Positions 45,502 to 63,989 of a DNA stretch of 64,000 nucleotides are shown here, in pieces. The translations under genes and the position numbers were made by a program. Position 1 is the stretch's first letter; each line of letters begins with the position of its first letter. Source of the DNA: a virus; IMG/VR virus record IMGVR_UViG_3300033752_000161, positions 458 to 64,457 of that record; one strand, written 5' to 3'. The notes beneath the pieces are model-generated. The model saw only the letters and a program-made list of their open reading frames with translations, was not told the origin of the DNA and ran no database searches.

Positions 45502-46233
45502 TTAAAATCCGAGATTATCGGCCGCCGCGCTCTCTCCACCGCCGAGTACCGATTTATCGAGTCCGGCACGTTCGTCCGCTTCCTCGATGATTTTGCGCAA
45601 ATCGTCTTCTTCGCGGAAGTTCGCGAGTTCTTCGTAAGGGAACGCAAATCCAACGAGTTTCTTCGCTTCTTCTAGCGTGGACTCATCGTCGACCTCACCG
45701 GATTCAAGCGCGTATGACTTGCCATCGGCCGTTTTCTTAACGACAACCGCGTCGCCGACGAGAGTGTACGTTTTATCGAACTTCTTCGCGGCCTTTTCGA
45801 GCTTATCGTAATCCCCGATGAGGTTCGACGCGTGGTACTCTTTCATATCGAGTACGCGCCAGGTTCCGTATTCGAAGTCGAACACCGGAATCATAAAGTA
45901 GAGTTTCCGCTTGGCCTTCGCTTTGCACGAAAGGCACGCTCCGCCGTTAGGTCTAGCGTACAAATCGAAATCAGCGCCAGCCTCCCGCGGAGAATGCAGG
46001 CACGTATGCTTGCGGATAAACTGCGATCGCGTTGCGAAATCGCCGTCTTCGTGGCAATAGTAGAAGTACCAAGTGTCAGGATCGGCGAGAATTACGAATT
46101 GCTTTCCGCTTGCCATCTCGCTAGCTCGCACATACCGCGTTACGCCTTCCGGGAGCCCTTCGCTAAGGCCGCCGCCCTGCGCCGACTTGCTGCGCCTCTC
46201 CTCGCGTTCCTGCAATTTGTTGCGGATGGACAT
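45502..46233 (-). CDS. Putative single-stranded DNA-binding protein
   Basis: HTC...CLSC and acidic tail ending DNLGF; heads the polymerase operon. Confidence 0.6.
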   Translation of the reverse strand: MSIRNKLQEREERRSKSAQGGGLSEGLPEGVTRYVRASEMASGKQFVILADPDTWYFYYCHEDGDFATRSQFIRKHTCLHSPREAGADFDLYARPNGGACLSCKAKAKRKLYFMIPVFDFEYGTWRVLDMKEYHASNLIGDYDKLEKAAKKFDKTYTLVGDAVVVKKTADGKSYALESGEVDDESTLEEAKKLVGFAFPYEELANFREEDDLRKIIEEADERAGLDKSVLGGGESAAADNLGF

Positions 46234-46260
46234 CGTGTACATCGACTTCCTTTCGGTTGA

Positions 46261-46558
46261 TTTCGGGAAGGATTGCCTCTCGCCGCACTCCGGATATGCG
46301 GTTCGAGGGCTTACGCTTCGGCCTGTGGTAGTTAGCGAGGCCCTCGTAAGGATCTCTCGCCGGGTCCGTGGAACCTCCCCACAGTTTTACGTGCTCGACG
46401 GTCACCGGCGTCGATTGGTACACGGCTCCTTCCCGATTAGAGCGCAAATTTCAGCGCCCGCCTACGCGACACTAACGCTTACTTTCCGCATTAACAGCGG
46501 AAGTTCGGGGAAAGGCGCTAATGTCGCGTGGCCGACGCGGAAACCTCCGCGCCTTCCC
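46261..46558 (-). ncRNA. Candidate structured leader RNA upstream of the SSB-like gene
   Basis: Several stems: 46465-46528 with G-U pairs on the minus strand, TCGGGAAGGA/TCCTTCCCGA closing 46263-46436, CGAGGGC/GCCCTCG, and a possible CTGTGG/CCACAG pseudoknot. Confidence 0.45.
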
Positions 46559-46563
46559 TACGT

Positions 46564-46596
46564 TTATTTAGACGACGCCCGAAAGCGTGTCGTACA
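46564..46596 (-). promoter_or_regulatory. Phage promoter class A (TGTACG-N16-CGTCTAAATAA), abutting the cas12f stop
   Basis: Matches 31824-31856. Confidence 0.6.
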
Positions 46597-46597
46597 G

Positions 46598-47905
46598 TCA
46601 TTCCGCAAATTTTATCGCGTGCTTAACGCGCTCCAATTCGCTTTCGATGATGGACTCGATACCTGGCGTTGCGATATTTCTGGCCGCGTTGTAGTCTGCG
46701 TTTGTTTTGTATCCGCACGCCACGCATTCGAATTTCGATTGCGACTGCGTAATATCCCTATTTGCTTGGGCGATATGGCCGCAATTCGAACAGCGCTGCG
46801 ACGTGTACTTCGGATTAATCTTGCGCACGACTATACCGACTTCTTTCGCTTTGTACGTAATCTTCTGCTGCAAATCGTAGTAAGTCCACGATTTCAAAAA
46901 CATCGAATCCGCGCCGATTCCCGTTAAATCTTCCATCTGAATTACGCCGCAACCTTGCCGAATCGCCTCATCGACGATCTTTCGCGAATACCGGTGGTTT
47001 ACGTTTGCTTTAAAATCCTCGACACGGCCCCGCAGCTTTTCAATCGGCTGTATCCGCGTTGCCCTTCCGTGCCCAATACGCCCATCTCCGCAATGTTTTC
47101 CTTGTCGTAGCATTGCGTTGCGTCGCGCCTCAACCCTCGCCCGGAATGCGCGAATCTCGTCACCCTCGAAGAAATAGCGGTCCTGCGAATTGTTGTACGC
47201 AAGAACGGCCGCATTCACTACGCCCAAATCGATTCCCATTACGTTGTCTTGTGATAATTCTTTCGGCTTCGTTTCGTGCTTATACGTAAGGTTCACGTAC
47301 CATTTGCGCTTTACTTGGAGAACCTCCGAATCGCATAACGTGTACTCTCCGGTTAGCAAGCGATCGAATATCGACTTGGCGGACCCTTTTGCGCGAACCT
47401 TTACGGTGAACGACGTTGGCGAATCGTATTCCTTAGCGCCTTTTTGCGATAATAACGGGAGTCTTACCGTATAATCTCGTGCGTCTTTCGCTAATTTAAT
47501 ACCTTGCGCACGGACTGGAATTGGAACATCGCGTTTATACGAAGGTATCGAAGCTTTACCGGATAATACGTCTTTAGAAAGAGCTTTGAACCGCTGCTGC
47601 GCGTCACGGATTGCGCAATCTACTGTTCCTGTAGGAATGTGTGGCAATTCTCCCGTAACCAACTCATAGATATCCGAATGTTGCGTTTTTCGTCCTGTTC
47701 CTAGTGATTCAAATTTCAGTGATTCCCCAAACCTAGCGCGATACCCGAAAGTTATTTGCTGAAAATCCCATGTCATTTGAATCGTGCGATTATAAATTCT
47801 CCATACTGCATACTGAACATCTCTGAGCGTCTTACCCAATTTATCCCAGGTGCAGTCTACGGGGCAAATGATTTCATACCTCATCGCCTTTATATTAACG
47901 GGCAT
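46598..47905 (-). CDS. cas12f: Type V-F CRISPR effector Cas12f1 (435 aa), RuvC intact
   Basis: RuvC-I MGIDLG, RuvC-II IQMEDL, Zn finger TSQRCSNC...CVAC and RuvC-III NADYNAARNI. SIPSYKRD, GHGR..RI.PIE.LR, NHRYSR and WTYYDLQQKI match AsCas12f1 as recalled. GGAGG RBS before ATG 47905. Confidence 0.93.
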   Translation of the reverse strand: MPVNIKAMRYEIICPVDCTWDKLGKTLRDVQYAVWRIYNRTIQMTWDFQQITFGYRARFGESLKFESLGTGRKTQHSDIYELVTGELPHIPTGTVDCAIRDAQQRFKALSKDVLSGKASIPSYKRDVPIPVRAQGIKLAKDARDYTVRLPLLSQKGAKEYDSPTSFTVKVRAKGSAKSIFDRLLTGEYTLCDSEVLQVKRKWYVNLTYKHETKPKELSQDNVMGIDLGVVNAAVLAYNNSQDRYFFEGDEIRAFRARVEARRNAMLRQGKHCGDGRIGHGRATRIQPIEKLRGRVEDFKANVNHRYSRKIVDEAIRQGCGVIQMEDLTGIGADSMFLKSWTYYDLQQKITYKAKEVGIVVRKINPKYTSQRCSNCGHIAQANRDITQSQSKFECVACGYKTNADYNAARNIATPGIESIIESELERVKHAIKFAE

Positions 47906-47974
47906 TTGGTGCGAACCTCCATGTATTTTTATGTGCGCTTCACATTCGCACATGTTGATTTATTCGATTTTGTC

Positions 47975-48376
47975 ACACGCTCATTGCGACCATTACTTTC
48001 CGGACGGATACTCGCAACTAACGCCTACACGCTCATTGCGACAACTATCCGGTAAGCGACGGGGTTACATCGGTTCTCGCAACTAACGCCTATACGCTCA
48101 TTGCGACATCCATCGCTTTGTCGTACGACCAAACGTGTGATCTCGCAACTAACGCCTACACGCTCATTGCGACGGAGATTATGGGCAAGCGTTCAAATTT
48201 TCTACCTCTCGCAACTAACGCCTACACGCTCATTGCGACATTCGAACAGGAGATTGCCGGGGCGGGCGCTGAAAGTCTCGCAACTAACGCCTACACGCTC
48301 ATTGCGACGTTGAAAAGGCACGCACTCATTATCAAAAGGCACGTCTCGCAACTAACGCCTACACGCTCATTGCGAC
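47975..48376 (-). CRISPR. CRISPR array: six repeats GTCGCAATGAGCGTGTAGGCGTTAGTTGCGAGA (33 bp) plus a truncated terminal repeat; spacers 35, 36, 33, 33, 32 and 19-20 nt
   Basis: Repeats at 48344-48376, 48276-48308, 48207-48239, 48141-48173, 48075-48107 (1 SNP) and 48011-48042 (last base variant), with a 16-nt remnant at 47975-47990. Orientation follows from tracr pairing and the degenerate trailer. Confidence 0.97.
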
Positions 48377-48393
48377 GGTCCGCGCTTGCCATA

Positions 48394-48543
48394 ATCGCAT
48401 ATATTGCGTTAGTTTGGTTCGCGGTATTTGTGCGAACCGTTTCATCAGCGCTAGTTAGCGCTTCTACCTTATCGAGCGTTATTCGCGTGCCTGCCTATCG
48501 CCAGCGAACACTTCTCGATTTAACGCCGCCGAGCCGACGTAAT
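48394..48543 (-). ncRNA. Cas12f1 tracrRNA
   Basis: Minus strand AUUACGUCGGCUCGGCGGCGUUAAAUCGAGAAGUG...UAACGCUCGAUAAGGUAG...UGAAACGGUUCGCACAAAUACCGCGAACC mirrors the AsCas12f1 tracrRNA as recalled. Anti-repeat segments AACUAACGC and UGCGAU pair with repeat GCGUUAGUU and GUCGCA. Confidence 0.88.
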
Positions 48544-48572
48544 AGGTGGCGGGGATTCCCGCCTTCCCGCAT

Positions 48573-48713
48573 TTACGCAATCACCACCCCGCGAATCACA
48601 CCGGTTTTAATGTAATCGGCGGGATCTTCGTTCTCATCGCAACTTCCGTTATAAAGGAAGTAAGCGTCGACCGGCCGTTTCGGGAATTTCGCGTTGCGTT
48701 TGCGTTGTTCCAT
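48573..48713 (-). CDS. 46-aa peptide upstream of tracrRNA
   Basis: AAAGGAACGGTG RBS; MEQRKRNAKFPKRPVDAYFLYNGSCDENEDPADYIKTGVIRGVVIA. Confidence 0.55.
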   Translation of the reverse strand: MEQRKRNAKFPKRPVDAYFLYNGSCDENEDPADYIKTGVIRGVVIA

Positions 48714-48811
48714 CGTATATCACCGTTCCTTTATCGTAAATTAATCGTGAACATTTCGTGACAATTCAGTGAAAACTTGTCACACTTTTTATGGGCGCGC
48801 TTTAATAAGCG

Positions 48812-48852
48812 TTGACATTCGTATTTTTTTAAAATAAAATAACGAATGTAAA
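48812..48852. promoter_or_regulatory. Plus-strand sigma-A promoter inside an inverted repeat; possible overlapping divergent promoter for the CRISPR operon
   Basis: TTGACA-17-TAAAAT at 48812-48840; inverted repeat TTGACATTCGT...ACGAATGTAAA gives TTTACA on the minus strand. Confidence 0.6.
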
Positions 48853-48920
48853 GCAATATGAAAGGAATTATTTACCGGTATAAATCCGAACGCCATCGGA
48901 TATACTGAATTAATGAGCTG

Positions 48921-49056
48921 AGTTTGACGTAATGCCTAAACGTCAAATTTTAACCTAATTCTAATCGTTAGTCTAGCACGTAGTCGCCAACTCTGTGCTA
49001 TACTAACAGGTGAGGGTCGAATCAACGTCATGCCTAAACGCTGATTCGTTTCCCTC
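48921..49056. ncRNA. Candidate three-hairpin small RNA
   Basis: Hairpins at 48923-48947, 48967-49007 and 49012-49056; first and third share the loop ATGCCTAA. Confidence 0.45.
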
Positions 49057-49066
49057 GAAAGTAAGG

Positions 49067-49645
49067 CTACGCCAAAGCCTTGCTGCATTCCTTTTTGAAT
49101 CGTGTGACGTATCTTCTATATGATTCCGCTTTTCCACCGTACTGTTGCGCCAACAACGTAGCGATGGAGGAATCAATTAAATTTCCACGCGTCCACTGAT
49201 TCAAAATCATCACTTTTTTTGGATCGCCTCCCGCCAAGGGGGCGATTTTTTCTTTAAAAAGAAGATTTTCTTCAACAAGCGCCAACTTGTCGTCGATCTC
49301 TGGAAACACTTCATTCCCTTCGTCATCTCGTCGATAAAACTGGTAGTCGATCGCTACCCCGCGGCACTGCTTCTTGTACTTCTTCGTTTCCCTTTCTAAG
49401 TACCTTTTTATCGATCGGTCCACTATCGTCTCCAGCGACGACTTATCCGAGTTAAGCAATAGTACCGCAGTTTCAATTCTTTGGAAGCACCCTTCCTCGA
49501 AATTTGCGGTGTTCCGAAGTTTGTTACGGTTTCGCTCCGAGATTTCGTAAACAATGGATGAAAAATGCCACTTAATCATCCACATCGAATCTTGGCAGCC
49601 TGCTCTTGCCTTCTCGGCCAAACTATTCAATTTTTCTTTGTTCAA
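49067..49645 (-). CDS. Sigma-factor-like phage protein
   Basis: N-terminal LAEKARAGCQDSM (region 1.2/2-like) and a C-terminal helical DNA-binding segment; GGAGG RBS. Confidence 0.55.
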   Translation of the reverse strand: MNKEKLNSLAEKARAGCQDSMWMIKWHFSSIVYEISERNRNKLRNTANFEEGCFQRIETAVLLLNSDKSSLETIVDRSIKRYLERETKKYKKQCRGVAIDYQFYRRDDEGNEVFPEIDDKLALVEENLLFKEKIAPLAGGDPKKVMILNQWTRGNLIDSSIATLLAQQYGGKAESYRRYVTRFKKECSKALA

Positions 49646-49678
49646 TCTTCCTTTGCCTCCTTTTTGTTCCTTATACTA

Positions 49679-49714
49679 TATATAGGGCAACGTTTTTTCG
49701 AAATTGGGACATCG
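49679..49714 (-). promoter_or_regulatory. Phage promoter class B (TGTCCC-N16-TGCCCTATATA)
   Basis: 36-bp element repeated with one mismatch at 59659-59694. Confidence 0.7.
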
Positions 49715-49843
49715 TTTTTAAAAAGATTTTTATTGTGATACAATTTCCTTGAATCTTTTTCCAAACGTTGCCGTATGAATCAAATATAAAGTATGCCTTT
49801 ATGTTTGTAAAGGTTCTCCGGGATAAACGGGCGGAGGTGCTTC

Positions 49844-50044
49844 GTGATTAGTTTTAAGCCGTTATTCAAGACGCTGGTTGACTTGGACTTGAGCCTTACC
49901 GACCTTGAAAAGAAATGCGGCTTTTCCTCGGCAACGACCGCGAAATTAAAGAAAGGAGAATCCATGCGGCTCGATACGATTGAGCGCATTTGTATCGTTT
50001 TAAACGTTCCGATCGAGAAAGTCGTCGAAATCATCGCTGACTGA
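49844..50044 (+). CDS. XRE/Cro-like HTH regulator (YozG-like)
   Basis: ISFKPLFKTL...LDTIERICIVLNVPIEKVVE. Confidence 0.85.
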   Translation: MISFKPLFKTLVDLDLSLTDLEKKCGFSSATTAKLKKGESMRLDTIERICIVLNVPIEKVVEIIAD

Positions 50045-63343: not shown

Positions 63344-63419
63344 TGGTGAGCCATGAAGGACTCGAACCTTCGACACCCTGATTAAAAGTCAGGTGCTCTA
63401 CCAACTGAGCTAATGGCTC
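63344..63419 (-). tRNA. tRNA-Lys(UUU)
   Basis: Full cloverleaf, anticodon TTT, CCA encoded. Confidence 0.96.
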
Positions 63420-63459
63420 ACAAGATGGCAACCAAAATTGTTTGCCGAAAATACAAAAA

Positions 63460-63531
63460 CTGGGGATCTAGGATTCGAACCTAGGCATGACGGAGTCAAA
63501 GTCCGTTGCCTTACCGCTTGGCTAATCCCCA
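63460..63531 (-). tRNA. tRNA-Gln(UUG)
   Basis: Cloverleaf, anticodon TTG, no encoded CCA. Confidence 0.95.
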
Positions 63532-63539
63532 TCAATTTA

Positions 63540-63615
<76 letters not shown>

Positions 63616-63624
63616 TCAGGCATA

Positions 63625-63700
63625 TGGTGGACGCTGAGGGGATCGAACCCCCGACCCTCTGCTTGTAAGGCAGATGCTCTCCCAGCTGAGCTAAGCGTCC
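63625..63700 (-). tRNA. tRNA-Val(UAC)
   Basis: Cloverleaf, anticodon TAC, CCA encoded. Confidence 0.96.
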
Positions 63701-63761
63701 GAGCAGCAAATCAGCTTACAGGGTTAATGTTCCCATCGCAGCAAATACAATACATATAAAA

Positions 63762-63833
63762 TGACCCGTAGGGGATTCGAACCCCTGTTACCTCCGTGAA
63801 AGGGAGGTGTCTTAACCCCTTGACCAACGGGCC
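63762..63833 (-). tRNA. tRNA-Glu(UUC)
   Basis: Cloverleaf, anticodon TTC. Confidence 0.95.
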
Positions 63834-63839
63834 AAATAA

Positions 63840-63912
63840 AGCTTCCAACCGGGATCGAACCGGTGACCTCATCCTTACCATGGATGCACTCTACCTACTG
63901 AGCTATGGAAGC
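63840..63912 (-). tRNA. tRNA-Thr(GGU)
   Basis: Cloverleaf, anticodon GGT. Confidence 0.95.
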
Positions 63913-63913
63913 A

Positions 63914-63989
63914 TGGCTCCCCGAACAGGACTCGAACCTGTGACAACTCGGTTAACAGCCGAGTGCTCTACCAACTGAGCTATCAGGGA
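63914..63989 (-). tRNA. tRNA-Asn(GUU)
   Basis: Cloverleaf, anticodon GTT, CCA encoded. Confidence 0.96.

Follow-up and report, generated by a model that had tools for sequence, protein, structure and literature searches.

In this study, we analysed a guide-RNA locus in a 64,000-nucleotide (nt) stretch of viral DNA (positions 458 to 64,457 of IMG/VR record IMGVR_UViG_3300033752_000161; the whole stretch is referred to as the window). On the minus strand of this provirus, a tracrRNA (trans-activating CRISPR RNA) gene, a linker, an array of clustered regularly interspaced short palindromic repeats (CRISPR) and a cas12f gene follow one another. Its sequence identifies the element as the guide-RNA module of a type V-F1 system that belongs to the AsCas12f1 clade, is nuclease-competent and is carried by a prophage. 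The layout is probably best read as a single precursor in which the tracrRNA and the array together take the topology of a single-guide RNA (sgRNA).

The tracrRNA gene adjoins the CRISPR array

The minus-strand order is an open reading frame (ORF) of 46 codons and doubtful reality at 48713-48573, the RNA region at 48544-48394, the linker at 48393-48377, the array at 48376-47975 and the cas12f ORF at 47953-46598. The tracrRNA lies 17-19 nt from repeat 1, with no leader. This agrees with the original prediction, made from the sequence alone, that the tracrRNA adjoins repeat 1 without an AT-rich leader; the 17-nt linker has a G+C content of 65%. The features of the module are as follows.

48394-48544, minus strand: tracrRNA scaffold of the AsCas12f1 type (stems 1-4 and anti-repeat), about 150 nt; 103.4 bits with covariance model R1, of whose seed it is part
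48523-48540, minus strand: stem 1 with loop GCUCGG; 48540-48535 paired with 48528-48523, loop at 48534-48529
48471-48519, minus strand: stem 2 with the invariant CGAGAA ... AAGGUA motif; base AUCGAG (48519-48514) with CUCGAU (48476-48471)
48447-48462, minus strand: stem 3, AGCGCU/AGCGCU around a 4-nt loop; read from the sequence and present in the centroid fold
48416-48438, minus strand: stem 4, GGUUCGC/GCGAACC; seven of seven pairs compensatory across 23 sequences
48396-48414 (to 48394 as first predicted), minus strand: anti-repeat, the strand of the long repeat:anti-repeat duplex (R:AR-1), from duplex energy and local fold
48377-48393, minus strand: linker of 17 nt with 11 G or C bases
48344-48376, minus strand: repeat 1 (48376-48345 and an A at 48344); CGAG at 48348-48345 is the pseudoknot 3' strand
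48309-48343, minus strand: spacer 1, 35 nt, from the reading of the array
47975-48376, minus strand: CRISPR array, six full repeats and a truncated seventh (47990-47975)
46598-47953, minus strand: cas12f ORF, 451 codons; likely start at the ATG at 47905, behind GGAGG

The RNA is a tracrRNA of the AsCas12f1 type

Relatives of the effector were collected as 13 loci from genomes and 6 from viral contigs, and a conserved non-coding block was found upstream of the arrays in several of them. Eleven blocks (the window and 10 relatives) were aligned as seed alignment A1, in which RNAalifold gave 22 pairs, 13 with compensatory changes, and the covariance model R1 was built from this alignment. R1 gave 29 matches at E <= 0.01 over the window and 161 loci. 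Motif scans of public collections yielded 24 viral and 118 metagenome stretches, mostly chance hits in coding DNA; among loci L021-L162, R1 matched at the same threshold in L034, L037 (twice), L044, L092, L094, L114, L129 and L151. Protein matches at E <= 1e-40 were found in 7 of 64 genomes from the order of Alicyclobacillus macrosporangiidus, and locus L170 comes from one of these seven.

The 422-aa protein of locus L170 matches PDB AsCas12f over residues 1-419, the printed part of the alignment, except at four residues, which we take to be the engineered substitutions of enAsCas12f. This makes L170 the native locus of AsCas12f1. R1 detected its tracrRNA at 94.2 bits (E 4.7e-24), and this locus lay outside the seed. 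Since the experimentally defined tracrRNA of AsCas12f1, which had not been used for the model, was found by it, the RNA of the window is a genuine AsCas12f1-type tracrRNA. Comparison with Cas12f1 tracrRNAs by covariance model was one of the checks proposed with the original prediction; its outcome favours this identification, as does the stem covariation described next.

When 23 matches were aligned to R1, 96.0% of 494 cells in the stems were paired compared to 71.2% in shuffles (0 of 500 shuffles reached the observed value), in an alignment that is biased towards the structure because it was fitted to the model. Changes on both sides occurred in 17 of the 22 stem pairs, and slid controls were 31-44% paired. 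The CGAGAA ... AAGGUA columns of stem 2 are invariant in A1 and their pairs are kept. The stem-2 region of AsCas12f1 forms base triplexes (bioRxiv 10.1101/2023.07.03.547593). Poor alignment around stem 3 accounts for its absence from the R1 structure. A search of Rfam over 46000-50000 gave no match at E <= 1; evidently, Rfam has no model that catches this RNA. All features by which an AsCas12f1-type tracrRNA is recognised at the sequence level were found, namely a homologous scaffold, covarying stems, R:AR-1 and the short repeat:anti-repeat pairing R:AR-2, which is the pseudoknot.

The adjacent effector is a Cas12f1 protein

The protein encoded next to the array is approximately 45% identical to AsCas12f1. 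Its best PDB matches are the AsCas12f chains 8j3r, 8j12, 8j1j, 8dzj and 7wju (E ~1e-113, query residues 17-438), with 8j3r first at E 1.2e-113. It also matches Pfam PF07282, the Cas12f1-like TNB domain, at E 8.4e-24. In the PDB alignment, the conserved IDLGV, QMEDLT and NADYNAARN stretches are intact; these presumably carry the catalytic residues of RuvC. The module thus has an adjacent Cas12f1 effector with a zinc ribbon and a RuvC nuclease domain that is intact, the catalytic residues being those that we take them to be. Translation of cas12f probably starts at the ATG at 47905.

The stem-1 loop and the repeat end change together

The loop core CUCG (48533-48530), as the 5' strand of the pseudoknot, matches CGAG at the repeat end (48348-48345) over 4 bp. 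GCUCG had been predicted to pair with CGAG; the pairing of CUCG stands, but the leading G has no partner. The corresponding AsCas12f1 pair, given in that prediction as GUUCA/UGAAC, was verified in L170, which has a GUUCAG loop and a repeat ending in GUGUGAAC. That the difference from AsCas12f1 is compensatory was likewise borne out, both by the loop and tail of L170 and by the covariation tests below.

A 4-bp match is weak evidence when taken alone, as non-cognate pairs reach 4 bp in 54% of cases with G-U allowed. We therefore weighed the explanation that the complementarity is a chance match and the element non-functional. The 22 loci gave 17 distinct loop/tail combinations, across which loop and tail vary in step. 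A complementary repeat end lies opposite each of the nine loop cores (CUCG, CUUG, CUUU, UUCA, UUCG, CCCA, CCAG, CUGG and UUUA). In 15 of the 17 combinations the longest loop/tail helix was at least 4 bp, and in those of L005 and L172 it was 3 bp. For this count, the loops of L171 and L020 were corrected by hand, and L009 and L011 were left out because the automatic caller truncated their repeats; by eye, these two are also complementary. When the tails were permuted, 2 of 10000 trials reached the observed mean of 4.18, compared to a high background of 3.56 for non-cognate pairs.

Covariation was also measured in alignment A3, which holds 13 contiguous tracrRNA-repeat units. In this alignment, 94.2% of 52 cells were paired compared to 75.1% in shuffles, with slid-partner controls at 29-64%, and three of the four pseudoknot pairs had changes on both sides; L171 and L172 are offset by one column, which adds unpaired cells. 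None of 500 shuffles reached the observed percentage paired, the count of cells changed on both sides or the covariation score. On two of the five measures A3 was not above its shuffles: the number of pairs changed on both sides (reached by 285 of 500) and further pair types (430 of 500), which leaves the chance explanation some ground. In AsCas12f1, targeting requires R:AR-2, which is stacked on stem 1 (bioRxiv 10.1101/2023.07.03.547593; PMC11246509), the same pseudoknot having been solved and shown to be essential by mutation (PMC11246509). These results make a chance match very improbable, and as far as sequence data reach it is refuted by the permutation and the A3 shuffles. The covariation of the pseudoknot is real but expected, since R:AR-2 of AsCas12f1 has already been published.

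The abutting layout recurs among relatives

Twenty-four tracrRNA hits had an array on the same strand, and in 10 of them repeat 1 began no more than 26 nt from the model end. These are the window, L015, L001b, L171, L172, L007, L004, L005, L092 and L129; a stretch of N in L004 had misled the automatic caller, so this locus was placed by eye. The other 14 loci have gaps of 79-316 nt, including about 145 nt in AsCas12f1 (L170). The linkers of the abutting loci share neither a motif nor a length (model end to repeat 1, -1 to 26 nt). The natural junction loops range from roughly 16 to roughly 47 nt, which shows how tolerant the sgRNA junction is. AsCas12f1 (L170) and its closest relatives L034, L044, L003 and L037 have an extra conserved hairpin after the anti-repeat, with a stem of about 10 bp beginning GUCGUCGA, followed by an AT-richer leader; this hairpin has no U tract, and the abutting loci are without it.

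A tree of 26 effector proteins was built and rooted at the midpoint only. The fragments L018 and L020 were dropped, and the DNA retrieved for L034 and L129 contains no effector ORF. The effector of the window is sister to that of L015 (support 99/98). The abutting state appears at no fewer than four places in the tree and needs four changes, at least two of which are forced by well-supported branches. Three array-less Cas12f/TnpB-like loci (L173, L174 and L175) are nested among the CRISPR-associated proteins. R1 matches over its full length in L173 and L174 and partially in L175 (model positions 96-129). The scaffold of L174, like an omegaRNA, overlaps its gene at the 3' end, and that of L173 lies on the opposite strand. 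The layout had been predicted to resemble an intermediate between the omegaRNA of TnpB and split tracrRNA and CRISPR RNA (crRNA). The nesting of array-less relatives that bear the scaffold fits this proposal, whichever way the change ran, on a tree rooted at the midpoint only.

In A. macrosporangiidus (genome G001), R1 found five copies on one contig, one of which heads a mini-array. Three others are solo units (L001a, L001c and L165), each consisting of a full tracrRNA, 4 nt and one repeat-like sequence with no further repeat. They lie at L001:1936-2107, L001:5287-5455 and L165:1501-1671; relative to the sole cas12f gene, these positions are 1.7 kb upstream, directly downstream and 24 kb away. 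Another copy in this species (L168:1501-1671) is interrupted by an IS605 TnpB-like ORF. The guides of the three solo units had no target in their own genome beyond chance (best E >= 0.1). From their sequences, the solo units look like natural single guides or omegaRNA-only elements. One scaffold and one guide with no array, the mark of natural single guides, was found only in these three; the window has six full repeats. L172 (genome G006, minus strand) has two tandem units of tracrRNA and mini-array at oriented positions 229-900. Each tracrRNA there abuts its own array, at about 19 nt in the first unit, and the repeat sequences of the two units differ.

A probable single precursor with sgRNA topology

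The anti-repeat core AACUAACGC (48414-48406) pairs with bases 19-27 of the repeat, and its extension UAUAUGC pairs with bases 11-17. The duplex of 9 + 7 bp has an energy of -21.3 kcal/mol compared to -14.5 kcal/mol for the repeat's own hairpin, and the minimum-energy fold of a local segment of 77 nt pairs the anti-repeat with repeat 1. A promoter and terminator scan from 48545 to 48344 called no promoter-like or terminator-like site. The same scan called none at the junction of tracrRNA and repeat 1 in L015, and none on the array strand in L001. These negatives carry little weight, because the scan likewise calls no promoter before the L170 tracrRNA, whose expression is established. With a linker of only 17 nt in which no such site is called, the DNA layout permits scaffold and guide on one RNA, and a fused transcript of about 220 nt is plausible. 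Read-through can be argued as the general solution for the layout, since the GC-rich junctions of L015, L001b and L171, with gaps of -1 to 4 nt, are too short to hold a separate array promoter.

In the mechanism that we propose, a promoter upstream of 48545 would give one precursor that contains the tracrRNA, the array and perhaps cas12f. On leaving the polymerase, repeat 1 would pair with the anti-repeat of the same molecule. Engineered sgRNAs join the tracrRNA 3' end to the repeat 5' end by a tetraloop (PMC8548392; PMC10090079); pairing in cis would give the same connectivity, with a loop of about 30 nt in place of the GAAA tetraloop. A Cas12f dimer would then bind the fused RNA, and host RNases would shorten the spacer to about 20 nt, with or without cleavage of the loop. 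The other repeats (2-6) would have to be served by the anti-repeats of other precursors or by tracrRNA-only products. The AsCas12f1 sgRNA stays active when its distal R:AR-1 duplex is truncated (bioRxiv 10.1101/2023.07.03.547593), so the distal R:AR-1 end, where the natural loop would lie, tolerates change.

Several observations weigh against a fused precursor. In the ensemble fold of the 220-nt RNA, the anti-repeat pairs with repeat 1 in cis at only about 5% probability, and the repeat's own hairpin forms at about 90%. This fold was not clearly better than those of shuffled sequences (z = -1.97, 6 of 200 as good), and neither was the local 77-nt cis fold (z = -1.31, 24 of 200 as good). The 220-nt minimum-energy fold is a weak witness, however, because it breaks stem 1, which covariation supports. 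The nearest minus-strand promoter-like sites upstream of the tracrRNA are at 48852-48823 and 48975-48947, with none convincing directly upstream, and an extended -10-like string lies inside the 3' end of the tracrRNA. No RNA sequencing runs containing the window sequence were listed. RNA sequencing of AsCas12f1 pull-downs gave a separate 169-nt tracrRNA and crRNAs of 40-50 nt (PMC8548392). Since the RNAs of AsCas12f1 were found separate, a fused precursor may be only transient here.

The separate RNAs held by AsCas12f1 ribonucleoproteins also argue for an ordinary dual-RNA system, in which a joint precursor would be cut fast, for example by RNase III, all spacers would be loaded alike and the abutment would reflect compaction of the phage genome. 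The 16-bp duplex of anti-repeat and repeat fits this explanation, as does the lack of a common motif or length among the abutting linkers, and six near-identical repeats are sensible only if the tracrRNA also acts in trans. However, with one tracrRNA for six repeats on each transcript, the tracrRNA would be limiting unless extra tracrRNA-only products are made, and the solo units of one tracrRNA and one repeat suggest that a fused unit can stand alone. We consider a purely dual-RNA system possible but somewhat improbable.

Transcription of a separate pre-crRNA could begin from the -10-like string (TG, one base, GATTAT; 48399-48391), which precedes repeat 1 by 14 nt. An array promoter would then sit inside the tracrRNA 3' end, and the tracrRNA and the pre-crRNA would be separate, overlapping primary transcripts. 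Extended -10 promoters without a good -35 element are common in Bacillota. However, the hexamer agrees with the consensus at four of six positions and lacks the first T, and the string was not called by the scan. The GC-rich junctions of L015, L001b and L171 hold nothing comparable, so an internal promoter cannot be the general solution for the layout. We judge this arrangement quite unlikely.

With these points weighed, a single precursor of sgRNA topology, formed from tracrRNA and array as the guide module of an AsCas12f1-clade system, is still the reading that we hold to be probable. It may be extended to a device that sets priority among spacers. In this extension, the tracrRNA would meet repeat 1 first and load the spacer next to it in cis, as a natural single guide and without RNase III, so that the newest spacer of a phage array lacking both leader and adaptation genes would be privileged; the solo units would be its limiting case, and the layout a living stage between omegaRNA and split tracrRNA and crRNA. 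The spacer next to the tracrRNA should be the newest, since the truncated repeat is at the far end of the array, and a bias towards spacer 1 is plausible because each transcript has one tracrRNA for six repeats. Taken as a whole, we regard this extension as doubtful.

The array and its setting in the provirus

Full repeats are 32 or 33 nt long, with a trailing A after five of the six, and the spacers are 35, 36, 33, 33, 32 and 19 nt long. The terminal repeat (47990-47975) stops after 16 nt, 37 nt before the first ATG of the cas12f ORF, and the spacer before it is the one of 19 nt. There is no terminator-like site between array and cas12f, so the two may be co-transcribed. Spacer 1 (48309-48343) holds the 10-nt string CGTGCCTTTT twice, 20 nt apart. 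The spacers had no match in the phage collection, and the window and collected loci gave no match of at least 16 nt beyond chance.

Metagenome contigs of four runs compared with 46600-48900 were identical to the window, with no other letters. The junction of tracrRNA and repeat 1 is bridged by contigs in three of the four runs, and the contigs break inside the array. As these runs may include the source sample, the contigs were not counted as independent support. One contig (run X1) joins 48010 to 48345, leaving a single repeat, either by assembly collapse or as a real single-repeat variant.

The provirus record has 64,457 bp, of which the window covers nearly all. The same-strand neighbours of the module are phage replication genes, namely a DnaC-like loader, a DnaB-like helicase, a helix-turn-helix regulator, a primase and a DNA-binding protein. 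Neither Cas1 nor Cas2 was found in the provirus. Seven consecutive tRNA genes (Lys, Gln, Thr, Val, Glu, Thr and Asn; 63344-63989) form the host flank at one provirus end, and this tRNA stretch gave the only matches to the phage collection within 40000-64000. About 400 nt upstream of the tracrRNA, a 16-nt motif occurs twice (48927-48942 and 49025-49040) and flanks the minus-strand promoter-like site at 48947-48975. A near-consensus plus-strand promoter (11 of 12 positions) at 48812-48840 points the other way. Going by these motifs, the CRISPR module may have a divergent, regulated control region in this stretch.

Comparison with known systems

If a fused precursor acts in cis, it would be a natural single guide for a nuclease-active Cas12f1. 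It would then bear on the maturation of type V-F crRNA, which is still unclear, and on spacer position as a setter of immunity strength. The route from TnpB omegaRNA to dual RNAs would become testable in living loci instead of only being inferred. If the precursor is simply processed, the prophage would carry a compact but ordinary system of the AsCas12f1 clade. The literature searched, in which supplementary data and key papers were beyond reach, gave no account of a tracrRNA abutting the array in a nuclease-active Cas12f1.

The omegaRNA (also called reRNA, right-end element RNA) of TnpB has been termed a 'natural sgRNA' (PMC10097598). It has the same order along the RNA, scaffold, pseudoknot 3' strand and guide, and the array-less loci L173-L175 match the scaffold model. 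However, it carries one guide fixed by the transposon end, whereas the window has a six-repeat array with spacers of adaptive length. The chimeric guides of dead Cas12f-sigmaE systems resemble the window in their Cas12f lineage and in having natural scaffold and guide in one RNA (PMC13472631). Those proteins are RuvC-dead, mostly have no arrays, use guides of 14-16 nt and activate transcription, and no tracrRNA-like species was detected for them; the window, in contrast, has a tracrRNA, an array and intact nuclease motifs. The same paper proposes a path from omegaRNA to split tracrRNA and crRNA and again to a single guide. The hypothesis that omegaRNA was split into tracrRNA and crRNA is thus already published (PMC10097598; PMC13472631).

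Cas9 tracr-L and the phage vsgRNAs are also natural RNAs of sgRNA topology made from tracrRNA and repeat parts (bioRxiv 10.1101/2020.05.21.102756; 10.64898/2026.06.01.729453). Both are of type II, come from an RNA and protein family unrelated to this one, and serve in regulation or as anti-CRISPRs. The TranC intermediates (Jin et al., Cell 2025, as cited in PMC13565253) share the idea that the omegaRNA split is the key step from TnpB to Cas12. LaTranC is of a different clade, since its PDB chains match the window protein only at E ~4e-4.

The closest known system is AsCas12f1, which the window resembles in its effector, scaffold stems 1-4, invariant stem-2 motif, long R:AR-1 and R:AR-2 stacked on stem 1, with the same register of loop to repeat (PDB 8J12, 7WJU and 8DZJ). 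The native order in L170 is cas12f, tracrRNA and array, whereas it is tracrRNA, array and cas12f in the window. AsCas12f1 has the extra hairpin after the anti-repeat and the gap of about 145 nt, compared to the 17-nt linker without a hairpin here; its pseudoknot GUUCA:UGAAC has 5 bp, and CUCG:CGAG of the window has 4 bp. Unlike AsCas12f1, the window system is carried by a provirus without cas1 or cas2. The pseudoknot is therefore known, and the leaderless arrangement that abuts the array is a recurrent variant of a known system.

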